The position numbers and the translations under genes are program-made. The notes below the pieces were generated by a model, which saw only the letters and a program-made list of their open reading frames with translations, was not told the origin of the DNA and did no database searches. Positions 4,311-40,054 of a DNA stretch of 64,000 bases are shown piece by piece. The stretch is from Eledone cirrhosa (taxonomy: Eukaryota): positions 204,538,001-204,602,000 of the forward strand of contig OZ024743.1 in assembly GCA_964016885.1 (NCBI GenBank), given 5' to 3'. Position 1 is the stretch's first letter, and every line of letters starts with the position of its first letter.

Positions 4311-4329
4311 GGCGGCATAGCGCTTACCA

Positions 4330-6487
4330 GGCGGGCGGGCCCTGTCCGTGTCTGCGTTGCGAGTGTTGCTGTTCTTATCTAACTTCCTATTCTTTTGAGC
4401 TGGTTCTTTATTATCAGTGATTAGTTCTTTACTAATAGGAATTTTTTTTTGTATTTCACCACGGTTGACATAATGGGCTTGGAGAGTTGACTCCCTTGAA
4501 GTCTGACCACTCGATAAGTTAGGGGTTGTGCCCCTTGATCAGGGGTGTGTATAGCTGGTCTACCTGCTGTCTGCTACTACTCGAGACTGGACACGGTCGT
4601 AGCCACAGGCCAGCGCGTGCGCGACAGCATAGAATGTATATTTTCTGCTGGTCACCCCGTGTAATATGATACCCTAAGATTCCATGCTTGAGATTCACCG
4701 AAGCATGCGCAGTCGTAACCGGGAGATGACATGCGAACTTGAAAATACCACAAGCGAGACCCTCTGGATAACGTAGACGCAGGACCATACCCGCAAATAA
4801 ATACCCTGATCTGTCTTGAATATACAGGGCTGACGGAATATGGATAGCACGACCACCATCTAAGCTGAGAACGACCCATACAGCAAACAAAGAGAGGACA
4901 GCCCTTCGATTTTGACCAGTCGCGTGTGGACTTGGAGTTCGTAATATACCACCCCAGTCAAGTCCACACTGGTTTTTTAACGATATAGCATGTGGACCAA
5001 TACATCATGCGTGGCGAAACCTTGGACTTAGAACCAGCAGGCTCGTCTATCGCGAAAGCGTTCAACCCCTGAAACTAAAGGATCGAACGGACCACATCCG
5101 GCAACCACTGGCTATTAGATCCACAGGTACATCTCCCAGAGAGTCCACGCAGATAATAGTGAACCCCAGGTGATCTACGAACGTTTAAACAAGACCAGCT
5201 GCGCCTGGAGCTATGCAGATGACTGCTTACGCCTAGTGGATATCGTGCCTGGAGCTGTGCAGGGGACTGCATAGGCAGAATGGATATCGCGCCCACACGG
5301 TTACCAGTAATGTTCATCCTGTTATATTTTTGCAATAATTTTATGATAATTTTGTAATAATTTTGCGATAATTTTATGATAATTTGATAGTTTTGTAATG
5401 ATTTTGTGGTAATTTTGTGATGATTTGATAATTTTGTAATGATTTTGTGGTAATTTTGTAATGATTTTGTAATAATTTTTAATCCTGTATCAATAATTTT
5501 AGAATGTTTTTTTGTGATAATACAGGGTTAGATCACGGAAGCTACCTTGTACCTTCTTGAGGATACATTTTATGATTATTGTCTTTTTGCTTATGTATTT
5601 TCTTAGTTGCCACTTTCTTTAATCTTGCCCAACTTGATAAACTCCTTGAATTGCTCCCTAATTAAATTGCTTAAATTGCTTAGATTATTGTACCTATTAT
5701 GCCTAAGTTGTATCTGTTGAAGCAGCCCTTTGAAAATTCCTCGGATATCCCAAATACCATAATTTTTAACTTTTAATGTATAGTTTTCCTCAATTCGTTT
5801 TTATATTTATCCTCAAGGGCTCTCTAAAATTTTAATTCTTCGAAGGGTCTCTCGGAGGAAGTTCCTATTGGAAATAGTAAAGGGGCCTTTTCTGAGAGAT
5901 TTATGGAAGGCTCTCTGAATTAACCTCTAATTGATTAGTTTCTTTCAACCTAGTTTTCAATTCAGTTTTCTGAATTTTGTAAACGTGATCTCGGGAGAAG
6001 AAGGTTTTTTTCTTTGGGAAAACATTTTTTTCTCTAGAAGAAATTTCATAGGAACTCTATATATTCTTTAGGGAAACTTTATATTTTTATTTTCTTATTT
6101 TATTAGCCTCTTAATTTTCTTCTAGACTAATAGGTGTATTGGAGCCTGTAAGCTTTATGCACTCATTGAGGGATTTTCTGAGGTGCTTCTACGGGACCCC
6201 AAGTCTCTTGGTTTAATGTTGATGCGTGAATTATATATTTTTGTCTAATTTTTAAACTTCAATCCCTGACCCCGACAACTAATATAAAAGAGCCCCCCTT
6301 AAAGCGGAGTTGCTGATGTATACAACAATTTCAAACTGCTAGCCTTGAGTGATACGTTGATGTAAACAATGATCTTGCAATCACATGTTATATGCCTTGA
6401 TAAGTCCCACCATGGGGTCGGACGAAACGGCTGTCGGCAATAAACTTGTTATAATGTCATAATAGTTCCTTTGTTCTTTTTCACTAA
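4330..6487 (+). mobile_element. Non-coding PLE-associated element ending in an HHR and (TA)n, head-to-head with family E
   Basis: HHR at 6393 followed by AATAAA and (TA)n. Internal degenerate ATAATTTTGTG-like minisatellite at 5330-5480. No credible ORF; the 5' boundary is uncertain. Confidence 0.5.
6393..6439 (+). ncRNA. Hammerhead ribozyme, U3-A8 core variant
   Basis: ugcc UUGAUAA gucc-caccaugggguc-ggac GAAA cggcug UC ggca. All three helices pair and the cleavage triplet is GUC. Confidence 0.8.
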
Positions 6488-6541: not shown

Positions 6542-6785
6542 CATATATTTTGGTAAACGGAATAGAAAATGCTGACAAATTGTTCACAGTTGAAAAATGG
6601 TTTAATTAGGAATAAAAGAGTATTAGTGATTGTATGGGTTAGTATTCAGTTGTGGTTTTAAGTTTTTAAGTTTTTACCGGTTGCGCATTTCTAAATGCTT
6701 TTCAAAAATAATTTTGAGATAGAGTGTCCGTGTTGTTTGCTCTGATCTGATTAGTTTTGGGAATTCCACCTGTTTTTAATTCTGG

Positions 6786-8108
6786 ATGGATAATTTCCAC
6801 AATGAACTACCACAACGCATCAAAAAAGAATTCGTGATAGAGGGACTCAAATTTATCTTGGAGAACAATTACTTCGTTTTCAATAACAAACCCTACAGGC
6901 AGAAATCTGGGACCGCTATGGGAACGAAAACAGCCCCCACTTATGCCAACCTAGTCATGGGATACCTGGAAATCACCCTCTACATTAAAGTCCTAAACAA
7001 ATTTGGAAACACCCTCCACTTACACATTGAAAGGAACTGGAAGCGATATCTAGATGACTGCTTCATCCTTTGGCACGAAAACATCGAACAACTTAAAGAA
7101 TTTCACACCCTTATAAATGGGCTCAACACGAATATTAACTTCACGATGGAATACAGCCATCAACAACTCCCCTTCCTCGACATCCTCATTAAGATCCATA
7201 ACAAAAAAATAGAAACAGACATATACTACAAGCCCACAGACTCCAAGCAATATCTCCCCTTCAACTCTTGGCACCCTAGACACGTTAAAATTAATATTCC
7301 CTACAACTTAGCCAAGAGCATCTGTACTATACTCTCCAATAAAAACATCTGCTACTTACGGCTACAAGAACTAAAGGACACACTCATAGGCAGGGACTAC
7401 CCTGCATCACTAATTGACAATGGAATCCAACGTGCCCTAAAACTCAGTACCCAGGACCTTAGACACCCTAAAGTAAATCAACCGAAACTAAAAGCTCTTC
7501 CATACATCTCCACACACAACCCCCTCAACAATGAGGCCTTTGACACCATCCTCCAGAACATCCCTGTGTTGAAAAAGGACCATAGAATGAACCAAATTCT
7601 ACGAACACACGATATCATAAAGAGCAAAAGACAATCCAAGTCAATGAAAAACATCCTAACACATGCCAAAGTACTGCCAACCACAACAACGAAACCCACA
7701 GTAAAAAAATGCGATAGACCCAACTGTGGTATTTGCATCAACCTAATAGAGGGTTCGGAATTCTATTTCAAAGATGGACAACTTTTTATAATAAAACACA
7801 ATTTCACATGTGCATCGGAAAATCTAATATATGTATTAACTTGCTCAGGTTGTCGAGAACAATACATAGGCCAGACCAAAAACAGCCTCCGCCAACGCAT
7901 GACTGTCCATAGATCCCAAATTAAAATACGGGAATACAGGAAAATACCACTGAGTGAACACATTGATACCTGTGCCGCCCAAAATCATCCCAACTTCAGA
8001 ATCTTTTCCCTCTACAAATTTAAAGATAATGCCACCCACACCCAGCGCATCAGCAAGGAATCTTACTTCATTAACAAATACGGACCCCGTCTAAACACTT
8101 CTCCCTAA
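6786..8108 (+). CDS. PLE RT (C-terminal half) + GIY-YIG endonuclease, 440 aa, 5'-truncated but open
   Basis: Motifs QKSGTAMGT, RYLDD, LPFLD, YYKPTD, CDRPNCGIC linker and NLIYVLTCSGCREQYIGQT...RMTVH. Confidence 0.92.
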   Translation: MDNFHNELPQRIKKEFVIEGLKFILENNYFVFNNKPYRQKSGTAMGTKTAPTYANLVMGYLEITLYIKVLNKFGNTLHLHIERNWKRYLDDCFILWHENIEQLKEFHTLINGLNTNINFTMEYSHQQLPFLDILIKIHNKKIETDIYYKPTDSKQYLPFNSWHPRHVKINIPYNLAKSICTILSNKNICYLRLQELKDTLIGRDYPASLIDNGIQRALKLSTQDLRHPKVNQPKLKALPYISTHNPLNNEAFDTILQNIPVLKKDHRMNQILRTHDIIKSKRQSKSMKNILTHAKVLPTTTTKPTVKKCDRPNCGICINLIEGSEFYFKDGQLFIIKHNFTCASENLIYVLTCSGCREQYIGQTKNSLRQRMTVHRSQIKIREYRKIPLSEHIDTCAAQNHPNFRIFSLYKFKDNATHTQRISKESYFINKYGPRLNTSP

Positions 8109-10700: not shown

Positions 10701-10859
10701 AAAGTATTGTTATTTTTAAACTTAAGGGCCCCAAATTACTCAAGAACGGGTCAAACTTAGGTCAGCAGAAAAAAAGCAAAATTTTGTTGGTCAGTGTTAT
10801 TTAGCAAGTGTGAAAACCTACCAACACTTCTTTTTCTAGAAAAAAGATATAGTAAATGT

Positions 10860-11540
10860 ATAGAAGCCACCCCACTCGCTTTCAGTGAGGAAAACATTTC
10901 TCGGTTTTTTCATGTGCTATCAACTAATCTAACCTCCAAGATTCTGGCAATCGACATTTCGAAGAATGGAAGGAGTTGGGTATCACCCACACCACGGAGT
11001 TTTCCTTACGACTTTTTTTTTTTTTTTTTGTTATCAACGAGTAGGACATCCAAACCAATCGGAAACGAGATATGTAGAAAACGTAAGGTGAAAGGGTGCG
11101 AAAAGACCATGCAGTTGCGCAGATCTACGCACCTATCACGTTTGGTGGAAAATAATTTTCTTTATTTTATTTTGTTTTTTCTAGACCTCTTCGATGCTTA
11201 GAATCGGCTTTTTTTCCCCAGATAACAGAAACCATAAACCTAACTCTAAACGTAACTCTAACCATAAAACGATGTATATATCTGCGAAACTCCGATGGTC
11301 TTTTCACTCCCCCTTTTTCTACATATCTAGTCGTTTCCAACTGGTTTGGGGATCATGTGTGTTGATAACACGCGACAAAAAAAATCCGTAAAGAAAACTG
11401 CTAGGGAAAGTATCCCACCCTCTCCTTCTCCAAGAAAAAAAAGTTGATTGCCAGAATCTTGGAGGTTAGATTAGTTGATAACACACGAAAAAAAAAGCGA
11501 GAAAACATTTTTTTCCACTAAAATCGAGTGGGATGTTCTA
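10860..11540. mobile_element. Diverged palindromic MITE/foldback element
   Basis: tatcaactaatctaacctccaagattctggcaatc (~10918) is inverted at ~11445-11480. The inner blocks gatatgtagaaaa and gaaaagaccat are also mirrored. Confidence 0.7.
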
Positions 11541-11646
11541 TAATAATACCAAAAATATACTAACGTCTAAGATATTTGGTCACGTAAAAACTGCATCCTT
11601 TAACACTTTAAAAGTTTTTGTGATTATATATATATATATGTATATA

Positions 11647-15470: not shown

Positions 15471-15492
15471 TTATATATATATATATATATAC

Positions 15493-15640
15493 GATATTAA
15501 TAAATGGAAACTATATTTATAAAACCCTATTTATTTCATTATACATATTTCAGGGATACCTGAATTTAATTTGGTATCCCTGAAATATGTATAATGAAAT
15601 AAATATGGTTTTATAAATATAGTTTCCATTTATTAATATC
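15493..15640. repeat. Short near-perfect palindrome (~68-bp arms)
   Basis: gatattaataaatggaaac...cagggatacc / ggtatccctg...gtttccatttattaatatc. Confidence 0.9.
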
Positions 15641-15688
15641 ATATATCTACTCCAAATACTTGTCGAGTGCTTTATATCAGTTATAAAA

Positions 15689-15729
15689 ATATTTACTTGT
15701 TGTATCCCAACAATTTTAAATAGAACTTT

Positions 15730-15765
<36 letters not shown>

Positions 15766-15806
15766 AAAGTTCTATTTAAAATTGTTGGGATAGAACAAGT
15801 AAATAT
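15689..15806. repeat. Palindrome centred on a (TA)n tract
   Basis: atatttacttgttgtatcccaacaattttaaatagaacttttgc-(at)n-gcaaaagttctatttaaaattgttgggatagaacaagtaaatat. Confidence 0.9.
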
Positions 15807-15872
15807 ATAACATTCTTGCATAGTGACCAGCGAAACTGTACAGTCAGGACGATAGAAAAAAATAGGTATATA

Positions 15873-16062
15873 GGGCGGTGGATTGGCAGTATCGGTAGAG
15901 GGTCGGACGCCATGCTTTCCAGCATAGTTACGTCCCTTTACCATCTGAGTTCAAATCCCGCCGAGGTTGACTTTGCCTTTCATCCTTACGGGGTCGATAA
16001 AATAAAGTACCAGTAATGCACTGGTAATTGCTGGCCTTGTCCCTAAAGTAGAAACAATTATT
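15873..16062 (+). mobile_element. tRNA-derived SINE of the common octopus type
   Basis: A-box-like TGGCAGTATCGG, B-box GAGTTCAAATCC, body gactttgcctttcatccttacggggtcgataaaataaagtaccagt, short (att) tail. Confidence 0.85.
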
Positions 16063-16524
16063 CCTTTTTATAATATTTTACATAACTCTGATATTGTGTC
16101 AATTTAATTATTTCGATTATTTTGTCTCTCATAATCATAGAGTAACACTGGTTAAGTTCGACAACATACAATCTCACATACTTGTGAAAAATGTATGTTT
16201 ATATATACATGTATATGTATGTATACACATATATTTGTATACCTCTCATTATTGTCTCTAACTCCCTCACGGTAGAGTAACCACGGAAGTATAGTGACTG
16301 CTTTCAAGCAAACACTATATACACTTCTAGTCAACCTTACCACCCCTCTGTAGCCTATGTATCATATCAATATCTCCCTCCGCCTTCTGAAATATTTTCA
16401 CTGCTACAAGGGATTAATACCCTTTCTTGACCGGTGTATCACGTGATAGAGTCTCCCTCCGCCTTTCTGAGATTTTCTCGCATGCTACGGACGTATGTAG
16501 TTAGGGCTCTTCCCTGAGGTGCTC

Positions 16525-16611
16525 CCTTGATAAGCTGGCTTACCTCACAACAATGTTGTATATCTATGATATAACATTCTTGCATAGTGACCAGCGAAAC
16601 TGTACAGTAGG
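16525..16611 (+). ncRNA. Hammerhead ribozyme, U3-A8 core variant
   Basis: cc UUGAUAA gcugg...ccagc GAAA cuguacag UA gg. Helix III is an 8-nt palindrome. Confidence 0.72.
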
Positions 16612-16639
16612 TATATTGTATCTATTATTCCTTTTTATA

Positions 16640-16690
<51 letters not shown>

Positions 16691-16863
16691 CGTCCCGTCA
16701 CGCACAAGGCGCCAAGGTACGCATGTATTGTCCAACCAAGTGCCAGTGTGGTTCAATGGCGGGTTAATAAATTAACGAGCCAGAACAAATATAAACAAGG
16801 TTTAGTAAATAATGAAAAAGTTTCAAAATAAATTTTAAAAAAATGACTTTACCTACTATAGTT

Positions 16864-16947
16864 ACCTTTACCGATCGGTTTCGAATCCCAAAAATAAAAC
16901 GGAGGCCATACGGCCTTCGTTGCAAAGAGAGATTCTCGTCAGAAGGT
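16864..16947 (-). ncRNA. Hammerhead ribozyme (canonical core)
   Basis: Reverse complement of the 17285 HHR. Confidence 0.85.
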
Positions 16948-17284
16948 TCTTTTCATTCAAAGAATATAAAATTCCTGAATTTAAATCACAAACTAACGCT
17001 ATCAAAGACTGTTCCTGGGATGAGAGTGGATGATGTAGAACAGGTTTGTGACGGGAAGTATTTCATATTACTACTACCTCCACAAACGTTGAGAACAAAC
17101 AGGGTCATTCCGACTGCTGCTGATAACAGCGGTGGCTAGTTTGACCTACCTCCTTTTGCCTCTATCTTTACTACGGCCCTTGATAAACCTGTTCTACATC
17201 ATCCACTCTCATCCCAGGAACAGTCTTTGATAGCGCTAGTTTGTGATTTAAATTCAGGAATTTTATATTCTTTGAATGAAAAGA

Positions 17285-17368
17285 ACCTTCTGACGAGAAT
17301 CTCTCTTTGCATCGAAGGCCGTATGGCCTCCGTTTTATTTTTGGGATTCGAAACCGATCGGTAAAGGT
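17285..17368 (+). ncRNA. Hammerhead ribozyme (canonical core)
   Basis: accuu CUGACGA gaauc...gauuc GAAA ccgaucgg UA aaggu. Helix III is palindromic. Confidence 0.88.
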
Positions 17369-17435
17369 AACTATAGTAGGTAAAGTCAATTTTTTAAAAT
17401 TTATTTTGAAACTTTTTCATTATTTACTAAACCTT

Positions 17436-17472
<37 letters not shown>

Positions 17473-18391
17473 TATAAAAAGGAATAACACGCACTAACAC
17501 GCAACCACAACCCCACCAAACTATCCAGGATTCTACTGCAAAACATAAAAATAGTTGTAACTGCACCAAACCAGGTACGTGCCCACTGAATAACCAGTGC
17601 CTAGCACGCAATATTGTCTACCGGTGTACAATAAATTCCGGGACCAACAAATGGTATTACGTCGGATGTACCGCAACTTCTTTCAAGGCTCGCCTATACC
17701 AACATCGATCTTCGATCAGGCACCAGAAAATGCGCTCCGTAACAACCCTCGCCGATAAAGCCTGGCAGCTTCGGAGGAACAATCAAGCGTTCTCCCTTGA
17801 TTGGCAAATTATTGCAGCTGCGCCTGCATATCAGCAAAATCACCGATTCTGCAAGTTATGCAATTTAGAGATATACTGCATTTTAACGTCGGTAAACAAA
17901 CTTTTGAACAGCAAAATTGAACGTTCTCTATACTGTAACCATCGTTTGAAAACGACTTTTTCTTTTTTTAAATGCATATAATGTTACCTTTTTACACCAA
18001 CGTTTGCAAATTTCTGTCTTATATGTTTATAAACAAGATATGGCTTTCTATAATAATAGTACTAAACACTGTTTTTCTGGACCCCTTTAGAAATAACCTG
18101 CTACTATAATAGCCCTAATAACTTGTCTGTGACACTGTACCACTTTGACCCCTTTAACTAAATTTTGTCCGAACAACACCACTAGAAGAATCTACTTCCC
18201 AGCCAACCTTAGCACGCCTCATTAAGCTAACTGCTGCAAAAACATTCTCTCTTCACAATCTCTACTAGTCTGACAGTCTTATATCCTAAGACTCCCTCCA
18301 CCTTACTCACTTCCCTCTTCCCCTTCTCTTCCTACCTCCTTCTTTATCTTTTATCTAGTGTATAAAATATTTTCATATCATTCTAATACAA

Positions 18392-18508
18392 AGGTCTGAT
18401 GACATGGTGTGTTGGCTTACAGTGTACCTTCGGTTTATGATAATATTTGTGTATTATTCAAATAGCGAGGTATAGGTAACTCAATCACTATAGAAACAAT
18501 TGTTACCT
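18392..18508 (+). ncRNA. HHR of family A pLTR (copies at 21395..21511 and 24398..24514)
   Basis: aggu CUGAUGA c-auggug...cacuau-a GAAA caauug UU accu. Long helix II insert; palindromic helix III. Confidence 0.78.
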
Positions 18509-18539
18509 AATAAATTCTATATACCCGCATTTCCATTTC

Positions 18540-18685
18540 GTAAATTTTTTCTCCATATTTTCTCCGGATTTTAAAACACACTTTATTATACGTTGAGCAA
18601 TCTCTGACGTCAGTTGACTCCATCCAATGCAACTACTTAGTAACATTGGAATACAAATTAACTAATTCTTCACACTCCTTTACAG
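18540..18685 (+). other. Putative retained spliceosomal intron in the family A 5' UTR (second copy 21543..21688)
   Basis: Candidate donor GTAAAT, branch-like ACTAAT at 18661, pyrimidine tract and TACAG acceptor 30 nt before the ATG at 18716. The donor is less certain than the acceptor. Confidence 0.55.
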
Positions 18686-18715
18686 TTGAGCAACCTATCA
18701 ACCCGCGTCTTTGAA

Positions 18716-20998
18716 ATGGAAAAACATCATTGTGGTATGTCCTTAAAAAACATATCCATTCTGGGTAAAAAGGATTACATTCTTGGTATGATACAAAGGA
18801 CCAAAGAATTTATTCGGCGGATTAGATGGAAGGCCTTCCACTTCGATAGGAAAAGGATTACACAAACTTCGGACACCAACAACGAGAAGTTTGGTTTCAA
18901 ATCCTACAAAAACCCACCCTCTAACCCTCTTTTGGATTCTTTCGAACAGGACTTAATGAAAATGATAACCGGAATCAAATTTACAAACGGAAGGAAAAAC
19001 GAACTGCAACGAGATATTAAAACTCTACTCAACAACCTAAGGAATACCAAAGGAATTATCATAAAGGCAGACAAAACTTCGAATCTATACACCCTGGATG
19101 TAGAAACTTATAACAATTTTATACGTAAGGAATTACATAGGAAGTACAAAAAAACAAACGCAACTACACTAACCAACATTAATAACGCAGCATGTGATAT
19201 TGTTAGGAAACTGAAAATTGACGACAGAACGGTACCCCTATCCCCAGCTACACCGACTTTTAATCTGAAGGACCATAAGGATAACTTCGATACTAACCCT
19301 AAAATTAGATTAATATGTCCTTCAAAGTCCGATATAGGTAGAATTAGTAAGTACATATTAGATCGTATTATCCCCCAAGTTAAGGCTAAGGTAGATATTA
19401 AATTATGGGGTAATACTCATCAGGCAATAAGATGGTTCAATAACATTAGGGACAAAAACAAATCTTCTTTTATTCAATTCGATATAGATGAATACTATTC
19501 CTCTATTTCACCCGAAACCCTGCATAAGGCCCTCTCTTTCGCTAAGACTAACTCGGACCTCACAAACGAGGAAATTAATATTATACTTGAAGCTAGACGC
19601 ACAGTAGTGCACTTTGAAAATAGTTATTGGGTCCGCAGGGATAGACCCTCGGAATTCGACATTACGATGGGTTCTAATGATTAGGCGGAGGTCACGGATT
19701 TGGTTGGGATCTATATAGCCCATAGACTCCAGAGCGAATTTACGGACCTCCACGGCGGAATATACCGCGACGATACACTTCTATTAGTCAAGAATATGAA
19801 CAAACAAAACCTAGAAAGGCGACGTAAAAACATTAGGAAACTTTTCTTAGAACTAGGGCTTAATATTACCTTCGAACACAATCTTAAGGTGGTCAACTTC
19901 TTGGATGTCACCTTCAACCTTAATAACGGTAATATAGAGCCATTTCACAAACTTAATGAAAATCTTAAGTACGTTAATGTAAAATCGAACCATCCTCATT
20001 CCATTATTAAATCTATCCCTAAAAATATATCCATAAGGATCTCCCGACTGTCGTCTAATTTGCAGACCTTCAACGAGCATGCTGAATATTATAATGACGC
20101 ACTTAGAAAAGCTGGTTACTGCGAGAAAATTGAATATCTAGACGATAACCACTTAAGTACTATGAATAAAACACATCTAAGTCGAACTAGTATTGCACCA
20201 CACACACACATCAATAGGCATACTAACAGGTGCAAACCAGCAAATAGAGTCAGACGTAGAGAGTACATATGGTATAACCCCGTGTACAATTCTTCTATTA
20301 GCACTAAGATTATCTCACAATTCTATACACTAATCAATAAACACTTTACAACTTCACATAAATACTATAAAATCTTTAACTCGCGCACCATTAGACTCTC
20401 ATACTCCACTGCACCTAACATAGAACAACTAATTAGAAAACTTAACTCAGCAATACTGAATAAGTACATCCCTAATGACTCAGCGCACCAGCATAGCAAC
20501 ATACAACGCACTAACACGCAACCACAACCCCACCAAACTATCCAGGATTCTACTGCAAAACATAAAAATAGTTGTAACTGCACCAAACCAGGTACGTGCC
20601 CACCGAATAACCAGTGCCTAGCACGCAATATTGTCTACCGGTGTACAATAAATTCCGGGACCAACAAATGGTATTACGTCGGATGTACCGCAACTTCTTT
20701 CAAGGCTCGCCTATACCAACATCGATCTTCGATCAGGCACCAGAAAATGCGCTCCGTAACAACCCTCGCCGATAAAGCCTGGAAGCTTCGGAGGAACAAT
20801 CAAGCGTTCTCCCGTGATTGGCAAATTATTGCAGCTGCGCCTGCATATCAGCAAAATCATCGATTCTGCAAGTTATGCAATTTAGAGATATACTGCATTT
20901 TAACGTCGGTAAACAAACTTTTGAACAGCAAAATTGAACGTTCTCTATACTGTAACTATCGTTTGAAAACGACTTTTTCTTTTTTTAAATGCATATAA
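18716..20998 (+). pseudogene. PLE family A ORF, unit 1, with a premature TAG at 19682-19684
   Basis: Near-identical to unit 2, but TCG>TAG in the GSND-S-AE motif splits it into 332-aa and 432-aa ORFs. Confidence 0.92.
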
Positions 20999-21718
20999 TG
21001 TTACCTTTTTACACCAACGTTTGCAAATTTCTGTCTTATATGTTTATAAACAAGATATGGCTTTCTATAATAATAGTACTAAACACTGTTTTTCTGGACC
21101 CCTTTAGAAATAACCTGCTACTATAATAGCCCTAATAACTTGTCTGTGACACTGTACCACTTTGACCCCTTTAACTAAATTTTGTCCGAACAACACCACT
21201 AGAAGAATCTACTTCCCAGCCAACCTTAGCACGCCTCATTAAGCTAACTGCTGCCAAAACATTCTCTCTTCACCATCTCTACTAGTCTTATATCCTCCCT
21301 CCACCTTACTCACTTCCCTCTTCCCCTTCTCTTCCTACCTCCTTCTTTATCTTTTATCTAGTGTATAAAATATTTTCATATCATTCTAATACAAAGGTCT
21401 GATGACATGGTGTGTTGGCTTACAGTGTACCTTCGGTTTATGATAATATTTGTGTATTATTCAAATAGCGAGGTATAGGTAACTCAATCACTATAGAAAC
21501 AATTGTTACCTAATAAATTCTATATACCCGCATTTCCATTTCGTAAATTTTTTCTCCATATTTTCTCCGGATTTTAAAACACACTTTATTATACGTTGAG
21601 CAATCTCTGACGTCAGTTGACTCCATCCAATGCAACTACTTAGTAACATTGGAATACAAATTAACTAATTCTTCACACTCCTTTACAGTTGAGCAACCTA
21701 TCAACCCGCGTCTTTGAA

Positions 21719-24001
21719 ATGGAAAAACATCATTGTGGTATGTCCTTAAAAAACATATCCATTCTGGGTAAAAAGGATTACATTCTTGGTATGATACAAA
21801 GGACCAAAGAATTTATTCGGCGGATTAGATGGAAGGCCTTCCACTTCGATAGGAAAAGGATTACACAAACTTCGGACACCAACAACGAGAAGTTTGGTTT
21901 CAAATCCTACAAAAACCCACCCTCTAACCCTCTTTTGGATTCTTTCGAACAGGACTTAATGAAAATGATAACCGGAATCAAATTTACAAACGGAAGGAAA
22001 AACGAACTGCAACGAGATATTAAAACTCTACTCAACAACCTAAGGAATACCAAAGGAATTATCATAAAGGCAGACAAAACTTCGAATCTATACACCCTGG
22101 ATGTAGAAACTTATAACAATTTTATACGTAAGGAATTACATAGGAAGTACAAAAAAACAAACGCAACTACACTAACCAACATTAATAACGCAGCATGTGA
22201 TATTGTTAGGAAACTGAAAATTGACGACAGAACGGTACCCCTATCCCCAGCTACACCGACTTTTAATCTGAAGGACCATAAGGATAACTTCGATACTAAC
22301 CCTAAAATTAGATTAATATGTCCTTCAAAGTCCGATATAGGTAGAATTAGTAAGTACATATTAGATCGTATTATCCCCCAAGTTAAGGCTAAGGTAGATA
22401 TTAAATTATGGGGTAATACTCATCAGGCAATAAGATGGTTCAATAACATTAGGGACAAAAACAAATCTTCTTTTATTCAATTCGATATAGATGAATACTA
22501 TTCCTCTATTTCACCCGAAACCTTGCATAAGGCCCTCTCTTTCGCTAAGACTAACTCGGACCTCACAAACGAGGAAATTAATATTATACTTGAAGCTAGA
22601 CGCACAGTAGTGCACTTTGAAAATAGTTATTGGGTCCGCAGGGATAGACCCTCGGAATTCGACATTACGATGGGTTCTAATGATTCGGCGGAGGTCACGG
22701 ATTTGGTTGGGATCTATATAGCCCATAGACTCCAGAGCGAATTTACGGACCTCCACAGCGGAATATACCGCGACGATACACTTCTATTAGTCAAGAATAT
22801 GAACAAACAAAACCTAGAAAGGCGACGTAAAAACATTAGGAAACTTTTCTTAGAACTAGGGCTTAATATTACCTTCGAACACAATCTTAAGGTGGTCAAC
22901 TTCTTGGATGTCACCTTCAACCTTAATAACGGTAATATAGAGCCATTTCACAAACTTAATGAAAATCTTAAGTACGTTAATGTAAAATCGAACCATCCTC
23001 ATTCCATTATTAAATCTATCCCTAAAAATATATCCATAAGGATCTCCCGACTGTCGTCTAATTTGCAGACCTTCAACGAGCATGCTGAATATTATAATGA
23101 CGCACTTAGAAAAGCTGGTTACTGCGAGAAAATTGAATATCTAGACGATAACCACTTAAGTACTATGAATAAAACACATCTAAGTCGAACTAGTATTGCA
23201 CCACACACACACATCAATAGGCATACTAACAGGTGCAAACCAGCAAATAGAGTCAGACGTAGAGAGTACATATGGTATAACCCCGTGTACAATTCTTCTA
23301 TTAGCACTAAGATTATCTCACAATTCTATACACTAATCAATAAACACTTTACAACTTCACATAAATACTATAAAATCTTTAACTCGCGCACCATTAGACT
23401 CTCATACTCCACTGCACCTAACATAGAACAACTAATTAGAAAACTTAACTCAGCAATACTGAATAAGTACATCCCTAATGACTCAGCGCACCAGCATAGC
23501 AACATACAACGCACTAACACGCAACCACAACCCCACCAAACTATCCAGGATTCTACTGCAAAACATAAAAATAGTTGTAACTGCACCAAACCAGGTACGT
23601 GCCCACCGAATAACCAGTGCCTAGCACGCAATATTGTCTACCGGTGTACAATAAATTCCGGGACCAACAAATGGTATTACGTCGGATGTACCGCAACTTC
23701 TTTCAAGGCTCGCCTATACCAACATCGATCTTCGATCAGGCACCAGAAAATGCGCTCCGTAACAACCCTCGCCGATAAAGCCTGGAAGCTTCGGAGGAAC
23801 AATCAAGCGTTCTCCCTTGATTGGCAAATTATTGCAGCTGCGCCTGCATATCAGCAAAATCATCGATTCTGCAAGTTATGCAATTTAGAGATATACTGCA
23901 TTTTAACGTCGGTAAACAAACTTTTGAACAGCAAAATTGAACGTTCTCTATACTGTAACTATCGTTTGAAAACGACTTTTTCTTTTTTTAAATGCATATA
24001 A
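21719..24001 (+). CDS. Intact PLE RT + GIY-YIG endonuclease, 760 aa from the first ATG (Hydra-clade-like by my recollection of motifs)
   Basis: Uninterrupted ORF: SLKNI...RIRWKA, IKADKT, QFDIDEYY, ITMGSND, GIYRDD, VNFLDV, CNC..CP...C, NIVY...YYVG...FKARLYQH, CKLC...CNY. Confidence 0.95.
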   Translation: MEKHHCGMSLKNISILGKKDYILGMIQRTKEFIRRIRWKAFHFDRKRITQTSDTNNEKFGFKSYKNPPSNPLLDSFEQDLMKMITGIKFTNGRKNELQRDIKTLLNNLRNTKGIIIKADKTSNLYTLDVETYNNFIRKELHRKYKKTNATTLTNINNAACDIVRKLKIDDRTVPLSPATPTFNLKDHKDNFDTNPKIRLICPSKSDIGRISKYILDRIIPQVKAKVDIKLWGNTHQAIRWFNNIRDKNKSSFIQFDIDEYYSSISPETLHKALSFAKTNSDLTNEEINIILEARRTVVHFENSYWVRRDRPSEFDITMGSNDSAEVTDLVGIYIAHRLQSEFTDLHSGIYRDDTLLLVKNMNKQNLERRRKNIRKLFLELGLNITFEHNLKVVNFLDVTFNLNNGNIEPFHKLNENLKYVNVKSNHPHSIIKSIPKNISIRISRLSSNLQTFNEHAEYYNDALRKAGYCEKIEYLDDNHLSTMNKTHLSRTSIAPHTHINRHTNRCKPANRVRRREYIWYNPVYNSSISTKIISQFYTLINKHFTTSHKYYKIFNSRTIRLSYSTAPNIEQLIRKLNSAILNKYIPNDSAHQHSNIQRTNTQPQPHQTIQDSTAKHKNSCNCTKPGTCPPNNQCLARNIVYRCTINSGTNKWYYVGCTATSFKARLYQHRSSIRHQKMRSVTTLADKAWKLRRNNQAFSLDWQIIAAAPAYQQNHRFCKLCNLEIYCILTSVNKLLNSKIERSLYCNYRLKTTFSFFKCI

Positions 24002-24608
24002 TGTTACCTTTTTACACCAACGTTTGCAAATTTCTGTCTTATATGTTTATACACAAGATATGGCTTTCTATAATAATAGTACTAAACACTGTTTTTCTGG
24101 ACCCCTTTAGAAATAACCTGCTACTATAATAGCCCTAATAACTTGTCTGTGACACTGTACCACTTTGACCCCTTTAACTAAATTTTGTCCGAACAACACC
24201 ACTAGAAGAATCTACTTCCCAGCCAACCTTAGCACGCCTCATTAAGCTAACTGCTGCCAAAACATTTTCTCTTCACCATCTCTACTAGTCTTATATCCTC
24301 CCTCCACCTTACTCACTTCCCTCTTCCCCTTCTCTTCCTACCTCCTTCTTTATCTTTTATCTAGTGTAAAAAATATTTTCATATCATTCTAATACAAAGG
24401 TCTGATGACATGGTGTGTTGGCTTACAGTGTACCTTCGGTTTATGATAATATTTGTGTATTATTCAAATAGCGAGGTATAGGTAACTCATACGCTATAGA
24501 AACAATTGTTACCTAATAAATTCTATATACCCGCATTTCCATTTCGTAAATTTTTTCTCTCTCTATATATATATATATAGATATAGATATATATAGATAT
24601 ATATATAT

Positions 24609-24955
24609 CACATAAGAAACGGAGAACCAGTGGTGTGTCGAATTAAAATTTATTAGACATATTACAATCGTTTCTCTGGCGACCGGCTCGAGGCACGATC
24701 GATGCAATGATCGAACCTGACTCTGAAATGATATTATACTCTGCTCTGTAAGAGGATCGAGTGCATATATATATATATATATATGTATTATAAAGAAAAC
24801 GAAAAATCAGTGATGCATCTGGACTTAATTTATTACGTGTTACAATTGTTTCTCCGGCAGGTAGCTCGAGACATGGTCCTTGTATGGATCGGCTGATTCT
24901 ACTTCTGCAGGTTCATTCAGACACGAGTATTTCGTTAGGAGCAAATTTTATCACT
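24609..24955 (-). mobile_element. Two short related HHR-tail modules separated by (TA)n
   Basis: Both end GAGAAAcaattg TA ... TAATAAATT on the minus strand (one SNP in the left arm). The 24836 module has a complete HHR; the 24609 module lacks a visible CUGA core. Confidence 0.6.
24836..24925 (-). ncRNA. HHR with a 1-nt core insertion
   Basis: cgugu CUGAAUGA a-ccugcag...cugccgg-a GAAA caauug UA acacg. Confidence 0.65.
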
Positions 24956-25027
24956 CATATATATATATCACTCATATATATATCACTCATATATATATCA
25001 CTCATATATATATATATATATATATAT

Positions 25028-26894
25028 GAATATAGACATAGAATAATCGAAAATATTCTGTATGTTTATAATAAACATTTTGAAGACCTAATCGCTATAG
25101 AATAGAATACGTCACGTATTACAATTAGATTCTCGATAAAAGCAAGGGAAGTAATCTACGCGTTTCATTCTTGTTAGAAATCATCAGGACTACATATCCA
25201 GTGCTTTTATCGAGAATGACACAGCTAGAGACTTATAGAATACTTAGCTGTGTACAGGAACTGGTTTGAAAGAGCGGTTGCCGGTCCGGCAGAAATTAGA
25301 AATTGGAATAAATGCTCTGAAATAGCGATATATATGTGAATATAGACATAGAATAATCGAAAATATTCTGTATGTTTATAATAAACATTTTGAAGACCTA
25401 ATCGCTATAGAATAGAATACGTCACGTATTACAATTAGATTCTCGATAAAAGCAAGGGAAGTAATCTACGCGTTTCATTCTTGTTAGAAATCATCAGGAC
25501 TACATATCCAGTGCTTTTATCGAGAATGACACAGCTAGAGACTTATAGAATACTTAGCTGTGTACAGGAACTGGTTTGAAAGAGCGGTTGCCGGTCCGGC
25601 AGAAATTAGAAATTGGAATAAATGCTCTGAAATAGCGATATATATGTGAATATAGACATAGAATAATCGAAAATATTCTGTATGTTTATAATAAACATTT
25701 TGAAGACCTAATCGCTATAGAATAGAATACGTCACGTATTACAATTAGATTCTCGATAAAAGCAAGGGAAGTAATCTACGCGTTTCATTCTTGTTAGAAA
25801 TCATCAGGACTACATATCCAGTGCTTTTATCGAGAATGACACAGCTAGAGACTTATAGAATACTTAGCTGTGTACAGGAACTGGTTTGAAAGAGCGGTTG
25901 CCGGTCCGGCAGAAATTAGAAATTGGAATAAATGCTCTGAAATAGCGATATATATGTGAATATAGACATAGAATAATCGAAAATATTCTGTATGTTTATA
26001 ATAAACATTTTGAAGACCTAATCGCTATAGAATAGAATACGTCACGTATTACAATTAGATTCTCGATAAAAGCAAGGGAAGTAATCTACGCGTTTCATTC
26101 TTGTTAGAAATCATCAGGACTACATATCCAGTGCTTTTATCGAGAATGACACAGCTAGAGACTTATAGAATACTTAGCTGTGTACAGGAACTGGTTTGAA
26201 AGAGCGGTTGCCGGTCCGGCAGAAATTAGAAATTGGAATAAATGCTCTGAAATAGCGATATATATGTGAATATAGACATAGAATAATCGAAAATATTCTG
26301 TATGTTTATAATAAACATTTTGAAGACCTAATCGCTATAGAATAGAATACGTCACGTATTACAATTAGATTCTCGATAAAAGCAAGGGAAGTAATCTACG
26401 CGTTTCATTCTTGTTAGAAATCATCAGGACTACATATCCAGTGCTTTTATCGAGAATGACACAGCTAGAGACTTATAGAATACTTAGCTGTGTACAGGAA
26501 CTGGTTTGAAAGAGCGGTTGCCGGTCCGGCAGAAATTAGAAATTGGAATAAATGCTCTGAAATAGCGATATATATGTGAATATAGACATAGAATAATCGA
26601 AAATATTCTGTATGTTTATAATAAACATTTTGAAGACCTAATCGCTATAGAATAGAATACGTCACGTATTACAATTAGATTCTCGATAAAAGCAAGGGAA
26701 GTAATCTACGCGTTTCATTCTTGTTAGAAATCATCAGGACTACATATCCAGTGCTTTTATCGAGAATGACACAGCTAGAGACTTATAGAATACTTAGCTG
26801 TGTACAGGAACTGGTTTGAAAGAGCGGTTGCCGGTCCGGCAGAAATTAGAAATTGGAATAAATGCTCTGAAATAGCGATATATATGTGAATATA

Positions 26895-26900
<6 letters not shown>
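25028..26900 (-). mobile_element. Tandem array of six 310-bp units, each with a minimal HHR (non-LTR retrozyme-like)
   Basis: Units start at 25028, 25338, 25648, 25958, 26268 and 26578, plus 13 bp from 26888. They appear identical, are flanked by (TA)n and have no ORF. Confidence 0.92.
25151..25193 (-). ncRNA. Minimal HHR (repeated at 25461, 25771, 26081, 26391, 26701)
   Basis: guaguc CUGAUGA u-uucu-aaca-agaa-u GAAA cgcg UA gauuac. Confidence 0.9.
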
Positions 26901-26950
<50 letters not shown>

Positions 26951-27009
26951 ATATGTATTAAATATATATATGTATTATATATATATATATGTATTATATA
27001 TATGTATAT

Positions 27010-27513
27010 TGAGCACTCTTATTCGATATGTGTTATTCCACATTTTCCCGAATATTTTTTGCGGATATAAAGGTTATCTCCCTTGCTGAAATCCATGTGC
27101 GTATTTTCAGCCTGGGTTTTGTCTTTTCATCCGTTCGGACAAAAGCTCGTTGAAGAAGTAACTCCAGTCCCCCGTTGTCTGTAAGTCTTATATTTTTATG
27201 TGAGCTGATAGAGGACGGTTTAAGGATTTACAGAAACCCAAGAAACTAGATATACCATATCTCTAGCGGGTCCGGGTATGCTTTTTACATTCATTTCATT
27301 TATTGATTTATTGATAATTTATCTGAGTGTCCCGAATCTTCCATATCGCAATTTTTCGGTTATTTGGTTGATTGTAGACATATTCTACGTGTGACGGTAT
27401 TTTAACGATAGTTATAGCTCTGATTTATTTGAATTATGGAGCCCTCTGCCGCTCATCTCGAATTTTGTTTATCGTGAACTCGTGCGCCGATTTTTCGATA
27501 CTCGATTATTCTA
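27010..27513 (+). repeat. Unclassified ~500-bp element between (TA)n tracts
   Basis: Bounded by (TA)n and shares motifs with 62910-63105 (see findings). Confidence 0.45.
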
Positions 27514-29344: not shown

Positions 29345-30733
29345 TTAAGTTATTTTATAGTGAGAGAATTTAGCTTTTAGTTTGTGGTTGCAGTATAATG
29401 ATCGTTCAATTCTATCGTTAAGTAGTTTGTTTTTGGATTTTAGTATGTAAAATAGCTCAAGGTTACATAACCTGCAGTACTTCAAACCACTCCGATATGC
29501 ATTTGCGCTGGAAAGTATATCCCATTTTAAGGTGAACTGTTGGTTGTGTTCACGGAGTTGCCAGGTCTTGTTGGCGAGCGTGGTCACAAAACGGTGATTC
29601 TGATGTTTGATTGAGAATCGATGACGGTACCAGCGAGATTTAAACGATGTGGTGGTAGATCCGATATAATACCATTTCTGGTCGTCCGATTCAACCGTGC
29701 ATTGGTAAACAATGTTGGACTTTAGGCATTCATTCTGCAATGGACATCTTTCAGGTAGATGGCAGTTACATGCTTTGTTGTGGGTAGCGGGTATACCATG
29801 GATAGGTTGTGATAGCGGTACAGGTGGGTTGTGCAATATCCGTCTCCCATTTAGTGGTTGGGAGGCAGATATTGCGTTCTGCCCACCTGTTACTAAAATG
29901 TTTTGTTTTGTAGAGTTGTTTAATTGCCTTAAGTTAAGTTTTTTTATGTATGCTTCAAGGTTTGGTGCCGTGGAGTATGATAGTCTAATAGTTTTGGAGT
30001 TCAGAATTTTGCTGTACTTATGGGAACTAGGGAAGTGTTTATTGATTAATTTAAAGAATGAAAGAGATAGTTTTGTACTAATCGAGGCATTAAAAATAGG
30101 ATTATACCAGATATACTTTCTACAACGTGATTTATTTGGTGGTGAACCTCTATTATTAGTATGTCTGGTAGTATAGTGTGTGTGTGCTTGTGTTTTAGTC
30201 CCCCGGTTACGTATCCCTTGATTACGTGTAGAGCTATGTGTGTTGTGGAAATTACTATCGATGTATTCTATTGTATCCCGGTGGTCAGCATTCCTTAATG
30301 CATTATTGTAGTATTCAGCATGTTCGCTAAAAATATCAGAGTTAGACGATAGGCGAGAGATTCTAAGAGAAATACTCCGGGGAACTGATTTGATCATGGA
30401 GAGTGGGTGGTTAGAGTTAAAGTCAATATACGTAAGGTTCTCATTTACCTTGTGGAAGGGTCGTATCTGTCCGGTATTTAAATTAAGAGTTACGTCCAGA
30501 AAGTTTACTACCTTAAGATTGTATTCGTATGTTATTTTTAGGCCCAGTTCACTAAAAGATTTTCTAATATTTTTCCGTAGCCTTTCAAGATTTTGGTTAT
30601 TCAAGTTATTAACTAATAAGAGCCCGTCATCTCTATATATCCCCCCCTGTAGATTACTAAATCTACTATGTAATATGTGGGCTATGTAAATTCCCACGAG
30701 ATCCGTGACCTCCGCCGAGTCGTTGGAACCCAT
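29345..30733 (-). CDS. PLE RT (from motif B) + GIY-YIG, 462 aa, 5'-truncated but open
   Basis: MGSNDSAEV, GIYRDDGL, VNFLDV, CNCHLPERCP, NIVY...YYIGST...FKSRWYRH, CRLC...CNH. Confidence 0.92.
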   Translation of the reverse strand: MGSNDSAEVTDLVGIYIAHILHSRFSNLQGGIYRDDGLLLVNNLNNQNLERLRKNIRKSFSELGLKITYEYNLKVVNFLDVTLNLNTGQIRPFHKVNENLTYIDFNSNHPLSMIKSVPRSISLRISRLSSNSDIFSEHAEYYNNALRNADHRDTIEYIDSNFHNTHSSTRNQGIRNRGTKTQAHTHYTTRHTNNRGSPPNKSRCRKYIWYNPIFNASISTKLSLSFFKLINKHFPSSHKYSKILNSKTIRLSYSTAPNLEAYIKKLNLRQLNNSTKQNILVTGGQNAISASQPLNGRRILHNPPVPLSQPIHGIPATHNKACNCHLPERCPLQNECLKSNIVYQCTVESDDQKWYYIGSTTTSFKSRWYRHRFSIKHQNHRFVTTLANKTWQLREHNQQFTLKWDILSSANAYRSGLKYCRLCNLELFYILKSKNKLLNDRIERSLYCNHKLKAKFSHYKIT

Positions 30734-33372: not shown

Positions 33373-33439
<67 letters not shown>

Positions 33440-33440
33440 A

Positions 33441-33495
<55 letters not shown>

Positions 33496-39733: not shown

Positions 39734-40054
39734 TATTTACTTGTTCTATCCCAACAATTTTAAATAGAACTTTTGCATATATATATATATATGCAAAAGT
39801 TCTATTTAAAATTGTTGGGATACAACAAGTAAATATTTTTATAACTGATATAAAGCACTCGACAAGTATTTGGAGTAGATATATGATATTAATAAATGGA
39901 AACTATATTTATAAAACCATATTTATTTCATTATACATATTTCAGGGATACCAAATTAAATTCAGGTATCCCTGAAATATGTATAATGAAATAAATAGGG
40001 TTTTATAAATATAGTTTCCATTTATTAATATCGTATATATATATATATATATAA

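Follow-up and report, generated by a model that had tools for sequence, protein, structure and literature searches.

Inverted copies of upstream flank at two PLE 5' junctions in a (TA)n-rich nest of insertions from Eledone cirrhosa

Two palindromes centred on (TA)n arrays were found at the 5' junctions of insertions of the Penelope-like retrotransposon (PLE) type in a 64,000-nucleotide stretch of Eledone cirrhosa DNA (contig OZ024743.1, positions 204,538,001 to 204,602,000; hereafter the window). In both palindromes, named P1 and P2, the upstream flank recurs in inverted orientation beyond the array, and this copy lies against a 5'-truncated PLE-type element whose own 3' end is in (TA)n, with 0-2 nt of homology at the join. 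Both palindromes are real and the probability of their arising by chance is negligible; they are a well-formed pair of templated junction scars within a nest of PLEs. We consider it somewhat better than an even chance that the inverted pieces are copies of the local flank made by fold-back of the broken upstream (TA)n end during PLE integration, and then end-joined to the cDNA. As read from its sequence, the whole window is TA-rich DNA packed with PLE-type insertions at (TA)n, and the coordinates of the features discussed are collected in Table 1.

Table 1. Features of the two palindromes and of the insertions around them (window coordinates)
Feature	Position	Strand	Remarks
E0, older insertion between two TA arrays	15492..15732	+	internal inverted repeat; right end is the P1 left arm
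P1 left arm, original upstream flank	15689..15732	+	44 bp
P1 centre, (AT)15	15733..15762	.	16 bp in the mirror copy (39777-39792)
P1 inverted flank copy	15763..15806	-	last 2 nt common with R1
R1, non-autonomous PLE-type, retrozyme-like	15805..16647	+	partial tandem with 5'-truncated terminal repeat; 3' end adjoins (TA)n
SINE-like insert, tRNA-type, in R1 5' repeat	15877..16056	+	from sequence; fold z -3.15; boundaries approximate
P2 left arm, R1 3' end	16625..16647	+	23 bp
P2 (TA)n array, left part	16646..16684	.	from sequence
E11, PLE-type hammerhead element	16685..17438	-	inverted self-copy; splits the P2 TA array
P2 (TA)n array, right part	17439..17466	.	from sequence
P2 inverted flank copy	17465..17487	-	23/23 match
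Single C, from neither flank nor element in register	17488..17488	.	between inverse and PLE-A
PLE-A	17489..24563	+	5'-truncated copy (17489-18553) plus two 3003-bp units; 3' end adjoins (TA)n at 24564

A preliminary description of this DNA had reported, at P1, 44 bp of flank, (TA)n, the same 44 bp inverted and then the truncated 5' end of a retrozyme-like element. This arrangement is present, with arms that agree throughout their 44 bp except at 15702 (43/44) and with the element, R1, starting one base earlier than the 15806 first given: its terminal repeat begins at 15805, where 15805-15844 equals 16569-16608 at 40/40 positions. The last two bases (AT) of the inverse are therefore microhomology with R1. 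The inverse ends ATAT and R1 starts ATATA. An exact 44-mer at one fixed register has a chance probability of ~1e-24.6, and the corresponding value for the 23-mer of P2 is ~1e-11.8.

The account of P2 as a 23-bp flank, a split (TA)n array, an exact inverse ending at 17487 and a truncated PLE was likewise borne out, with one extra C before PLE-A. The element starts at a point equal to 20506 of a full unit, with 0 nt of microhomology with the inverse. Because the P2 left arm is an ordinary part of R1, found also at 16058 in the R1 5' repeat and there without an inverted partner, it is the right arm that is derived. The inverses do not come from the adjacent elements either, to which they are identical in register at 7/42 (P1 against R1) and 5/24 (P2 against PLE-A) positions; together with the unpaired copy this makes the left arms the older ones and the right arms the copies. 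An origin from the element itself, as in the canonical PLE inverted pLTR, was rejected on these identities, the flank being matched instead. A MITE or other small foldback transposon was rejected as well: the P2 left arm is the R1 3' end, recurring unpaired, and the TA lies inside the arms of both palindromes, not outside. MITE-like foldback elements unrelated to the PLE junctions were seen at 62368-62818 and 10859-11542 (95% and 67% arm identity). A search of the palindromes against Rfam gave nothing beyond miRNA-type hairpin matches, all of them sub-threshold, and a microRNA identity was rejected.

We compared 32 non-redundant TA arrays in 94 pairs no more than 1.5 kb apart, and a long exact inverted match of complex sequence was encountered in P1 and P2 only (32 and 23 nt). 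The third-best pair shared 18 nt of a (CA)n/(TG)n run, and the others 6 nt or less. Elsewhere in the window no inverses were found beyond the mirror arm described below and, for the 23-mer, the R1 5' repeat. Among the matches listed for 123 loci of a viral collection, the distinct internal (TA)12+ tracts numbered 103, and none of them had a non-TA inverted flank, one match being TA only; as the organisms are unrelated, this shows just that TA arrays lack such arms by default. PLE-A relatives were sought too: four loci (36-39% identity) were obtained from 53 candidate stretches in metagenome contigs, none of the four with a usable TA junction, and 0 of 2 candidates in viral contigs were relatives. 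Eight public runs were listed for the locus: three of one sample, possibly its source, contain 0.61-0.63 of the sampled words, two contain ~0.2 and three were added on the species label alone.

Nineteen PLE-type insertions were curated by hand in the non-redundant part of the window on the basis of hammerheads, ORFs and second copies, some hammerhead halves being taken by eye from the sequence where the scan output had none. The 5' census was confined to ends that were resolved and lay in TA, which set aside five insertions: the element with its end at 6486, and those whose 5' ends lie near 4312, 14292, 27010 and 60880. Among the resulting 14 junctions, an inverted flank was found at two (2/14 may be an undercount, since fold-back within a long TA flank is invisible), an inverted piece of the element at five (6549-6778, E0, E11, PLE-B at 30732 and 63549-63682), and seven abutted TA, six directly and one with a short iterated unit (24950). 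At the 17 3' ends examined, 15 lay directly at alternating TA and two within a few bases of it, and 0/17 had an inverse between element and TA. The preliminary description had called the arrangement a recurrent signature; the two cases are real, and they come from one nested locus while 12 of the 14 resolved 5' junctions lack it. Two cases are not a signature.

At neither palindrome does TA remain between the inverse and the element (0/2; the four alternating bases seen at P1 belong to the end of the inverse), whereas all plain junctions (6/6) had 12-39 alternating bases (p 0.036 by Fisher's test, post hoc and on small numbers). The absence of residual TA at both joins favours coupling of the inverted copies to insertion. 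Of the five element-derived inverses, four stop at an internal TA-alternating word, and the fifth, in PLE-B, continues as far as the 3' TA and past it. It was also noted that the inverted segments at 6549-6778, 15484-15649, 16789-17443 and 63414-63682 all end at such a word. This suggests that the length of the PLE tail here (~36 to >100 bp) is set by the point at which the upstream TA end anneals and not by a fixed site. Beside element ends at 24950-25027 and 26940-27010, short units of the TATCACTCA and ATATATGTATT types are iterated 3-5 times with TA spacers, as if slippage priming had occurred repeatedly at the junction.

The flank copied at P1 belongs to E0, which has an inverted repeat with 69-bp arms outside TA (67/69), a 12-nt loop and ~90 bp past the arm. 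This is the layout of inverted-pLTR-with-tail PLEs, but neither a hammerhead nor an ORF was detected, and it is the anatomy that points to a PLE-type nature and to the orientation given. R1 carries a type I hammerhead core of the U3:A8 variant (TTGATAA at 16527, GAAAC-TGTACA-GTA at 16596), a variant known from earlier work (PMC4209133); a core of this kind occurs in two unrelated families in the window (6397-6435 and 16527-16609). Stem II is predicted at 5 bp and stem I at 2 bp, a TGTACA loop is present, and Rfam returned no hammerhead match for R1, its single hammerhead in the search being a sub-threshold one at 59437. Non-LTR retrozymes lack an ORF and have a type I hammerhead with a palindromic loop III; the R1 hammerhead is probably decayed, with a weak stem I. 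Active retrozymes have been defined as having two or more units in tandem, each with a complete hammerhead (10.64898/2026.07.22.740005); R1 has one full unit and a truncated repeat with just the 3' half of the motif, and is for this reason named retrozyme-like. No ORF of 120 aa or more was found in it. Its terminal repeats (15845-15863 against 16608) differ by a 19-bp indel just past the hammerhead cleavage site, which reads GTC in one repeat and GTA in the other. A SINE-like insert replaces 7 bp of the R1 5' repeat and contains the A-box-like TGGCAGTATCGG, the B-box-like GTTCAAATCC and a GGCGG/CCGCC closing stem. The two boxes are putative matches to the box consensus, and the insert may resemble cephalopod SINEs.

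PLE-A, downstream of P2, consists of a truncated copy of 1065 bp and two full units, with a hammerhead in each unit (CTGATGA...GAAAC-AATT-GTT). The second unit has an open frame of 778 codons with RWK (55), DKT (137), YRDD, CxCX5C (CNCTKPGTC, 638), YYVG (671) and CxxC (CKLC, 736), so that the Hydra-clade motifs are present; the CxH motif reads CNH in the truncated copy and CNY in the full units. The Hydra clade has been described by RWK and DKT in the N-terminal part of the RT, a CxCX5C linker, a C-terminal EN of GIY-YIG type with CxxC and CxH close to the end, a hammerhead, short length (<3 kb) and insertion in (TA)n (PMC8557442). At 3003 bp the PLE-A unit is at the limit of that length, while its hammerhead and (TA)n insertion fit the clade, and its motifs make it a probable Hydra-type PLE. 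The domain calls rest on motifs because Pfam matched neither RT nor GIY-YIG in the PLE-A protein; among five proteins searched, GIY-YIG and RT were recognised just in the element at 6780-8105. Against 20506-21556 and 23509-24559, the truncated copy shows 11-16 substitutions and a 14-bp insertion in ~1.05 kb, and the full units differ at 6-10 of 3003 positions. Several templates may have contributed to a single insertion.

The order of the locus reads as a chain, with R1 in the TA behind E0, PLE-A in the TA behind R1, and E11 in the TA between them. E11 has 258-bp arms with three mismatches, a hammerhead in each arm and a 104-bp unpaired extension, which is the known inverted-pLTR-with-tail layout of PLEs. 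It does split the P2 array, as had been described; that it did so later, being younger than PLE-A, we infer rather than observe. Dating by arm divergence was tried and does not settle the order: 3/258 between the E11 arms against 6-10/3003 between the PLE-A units does not make E11 the younger, and one of the three arm mismatches is private to one mirror arm.

Much of the window is itself duplicated. Positions 1-25040 recur inverted at 33456-55466 with 99.2-99.3% identity, and the mirror arms differ by 18 substitutions and 10 indels over 17.5 kb. The copies of P1 and P2 at 38.0-39.8 kb belong to the mirror arm of this >25-kb inverted duplication and are therefore not independent cases; their use as replicates was rejected. 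As a whole the duplication pairs 1-29675 with 30732-55466 (left arm at least 29 kb, ~0.1% substitutions), and its centre is exactly the inverted 5' junction of PLE-B, a second Hydra-like PLE, with ~6 nt of TACCAT homology. It is either a real PLE-linked foldback duplication or two haplotypes misjoined by the assembler via a 1.1-kb inverted repeat; an L1-linked foldback duplication has been reported (PMC11702581). The left arm alone carries a six-unit 310-bp hammerhead tandem, retrozyme-like and on the minus strand, at 25028-26900. At the matching place the right arm (33433-33456) has just a short (TA)n-flanked GTATTCTT-type piece, so the mirror arm provides an empty or reduced site for the tandem. 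PLE-A has one unit fewer in the right mirror arm.

In the mechanism that we propose, the PLE endonuclease would cut within (TA)n and the downstream end would prime the cDNA. The upstream end would be resected, and its self-complementary (TA)n would form a hairpin. This could be extended for 23-44 nt along its own flank, either by the PLE RT or by a theta- or delta-like polymerase of the host. The extended end would then be captured by end joining to the truncated cDNA end with 0-2 nt of homology. The commoner junctions would likely start from the same orphan TA end, which may anneal to a TA-like word in the element, giving an inverted pLTR and tail, or be joined directly to the cDNA. The TA arrays have predicted hairpins of -9 to -10 kcal/mol, with a stem of 13-17 bp on offer for priming. 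The join homology (2 nt at P1; 0 nt plus one base at P2) resembles that of local foldback duplications in yeast as reported in PMC11724301, and the following marks of a foldback junction are found here: an insert that is the reverse complement of DNA beside the break, an inverted primer repeat and 0-5 nt of homology. Against this reading stand its two cases at a single nested locus and, at P2, the need for E11 to be younger than PLE-A or for a loop of 800 nt.

The preliminary description had drawn the same fold-back inference. It stands as the best single explanation, with a junction anatomy that fits, although copying primed by the cDNA or repair uncoupled from insertion would leave the same sequence. 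Its further proposal, of an inverted duplication in place of a direct TSD, cannot be judged, since no such direct repeat would show inside (TA)n. In the version with cDNA priming, the truncated cDNA 3' end would anneal 23-44 nt from the TA edge, copy toward the break through the TA and anneal to the upstream TA overhang; the product is that of fold-back and is likewise coupled to insertion. The R2 PRINT papers, in their available text, read snap-back on nearby rDNA in this way, assigning it to the cDNA end and not the target end, which counts against fold-back, and the same reading is given for the flank-derived 5' extra nucleotides of zebrafish LINEs and for L1 templated insertions (<250 bp) from near the site. 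Loops of 12 nt (15561-15572) and ~20 nt (near 63548) suggest cDNA self-priming in the window. For P1 and P2 cDNA-primed copying would need internal priming on 2 nt and on zero register homology, respectively, as against the 13-17 bp of a TA hairpin, and we regard it as unlikely. Quite unlikely, in our judgement, is a break in (TA)n before or after insertion that was repaired by foldback, the element's 5' end having come to adjoin it through a deletion or a later insertion; at P2 the break is possibly the E11 insertion. Foldback duplications are reported at plain breaks without a transposon, TA repeats are described as break-prone (PMC12972899, PMC13645644), and PLE 5' ends are common beside TA arrays here (7/14). 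Since the P1 join is TA-like on both sides, it also fits a plain TA-homology junction and a separate repair event. The P2 truncation point is not TA-like, neither join retains residual TA, and in the window the inverses at TA arrays join PLE-type 5' ends only, all of which speak against such uncoupled repair.

Both flanks are themselves 3' ends of PLE-type insertions, which weighs against fold-back and would suit a tail-to-tail sister copy, in which the upstream end was primed on E0- or R1-family RNA and a 3' stub of 23-44 nt was joined head-to-head with the main cDNA. A PLE protein is reported to cut and extend both strands in vitro (PMC11167929), 3' self-priming is expected to yield tail-to-tail repeats (PMC3846280), and the P2 23-mer, common to both R1 repeats, could have been templated by either. 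The stub, however, matches the sole adjacent family among more than 12 in the window, in both cases and at 98-100% identity, and we hold this origin to be very improbable. An assembly or sequencing artefact at TA hairpins could be suspected in a window with a >25-kb inverted duplication that is itself possibly a haplotype misjoin. Yet the single-base difference between the P1 arms is present in both mirror copies, the TA arrays are not of equal length in the two copies (30/16, 39/87 and 28/22) and the inverses pass cleanly into element sequence, leaving an artefact exceedingly improbable.

Fold-back of the upstream (TA)n end could extend beyond P1 and P2. We entertain, as tentative and somewhat unlikely, that one such reaction, on differing templates and over differing lengths, made the inverted flanks (23-44 bp), the inverted pLTRs with tails (70-1100 bp) and the palindrome with ~29-kb arms at PLE-B (29675/30732). 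Were this so, TA-targeting PLEs would routinely leave inverted target duplications, the target serving as its own primer, and would steadily supply TA-rich invertebrate genomes with foldback duplications. The completion of the PLE 5' end and the origin of tandem and inverted structures are named as open questions in PMC8557442 and PMC11167929. Since (TA)n conceals ordinary target duplications, a junction that records what happened to the upstream target end is a rare readout. If such junctions are common, a tally from any good long-read assembly is feasible and would be a test of whether PLE architecture is shaped by host foldback repair; if they are rare, they are a routine repair scar of the kind that a minority of R2 and L1 insertions show.

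The type of outcome is known from R2, other LINEs and plain breaks; the form found here, centred on TA at PLE 5' ends, seems not to have been described. No report of inverted target flank at PLE junctions was found in the literature searched, where coverage was thin for subscription journals and supplements; the available text of the Octopus vulgaris repeat paper contains nothing on junctions, and that of the Hydra clade (PMC8557442), which shares with PLE-A the motifs, hammerhead, ~3 kb length and (TA)n target, describes the junctions as (TA)n insertion and nothing further. Snap-back 5' junctions of R2 are reported to contain reverse-complemented cDNA or, less often, nearby rDNA (PMC11371274, PMC11204384, PMC11331408). 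Both subtypes, cDNA and target DNA, are present in the window; the PRINT system differs in that an engineered R2 is used in human cells, the rDNA site is fixed and snap-back is ascribed to the cDNA end, and in its available account it has no self-complementary microsatellite centre. For zebrafish ZfL2 LINEs the 5' extra nucleotides are largely copied from the flank (PMC4245944, PMC4760211), and for L1 there are 22 cases of templated insertions (<250 bp) from near the site, with 3,598 insertions given in the legend of the figure (10.1101/2024.08.27.596794). These resemble P1 and P2 in the copying of local genomic sequence into the 5' junction at integration, though the accounts as available give neither an orientation nor a TA-centred palindrome.

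Also related in form are the foldback duplications at yeast breaks, described as mostly 5-34 bp long and joined with 0-5 bp of homology (median 2; PMC11724301), and those at a Drosophila break, where TA/AT are the commonest snap-back primers in SD-MMEJ (PMC5728401). They share with P1 and P2 a short inverted copy of the break flank, hairpin priming, 0-5 nt of join homology and frequent TA/AT primers, and differ in that the partner is the other chromosome end, whereas here it is a retroelement 5' end and the primer is a long (TA)n. For PLEs, published accounts describe inverted copies that derive from the element, tails and self-priming palindromes, as well as extension on both strands of the target (PMC3846280, PMC8557442, PMC11167929). 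The canonical inverted pLTR with tail, matched at five junctions of the window, likewise places an inverted segment at a truncated 5' junction in a microsatellite target; its segment is element sequence, whereas that of P1 and P2 is target flank.
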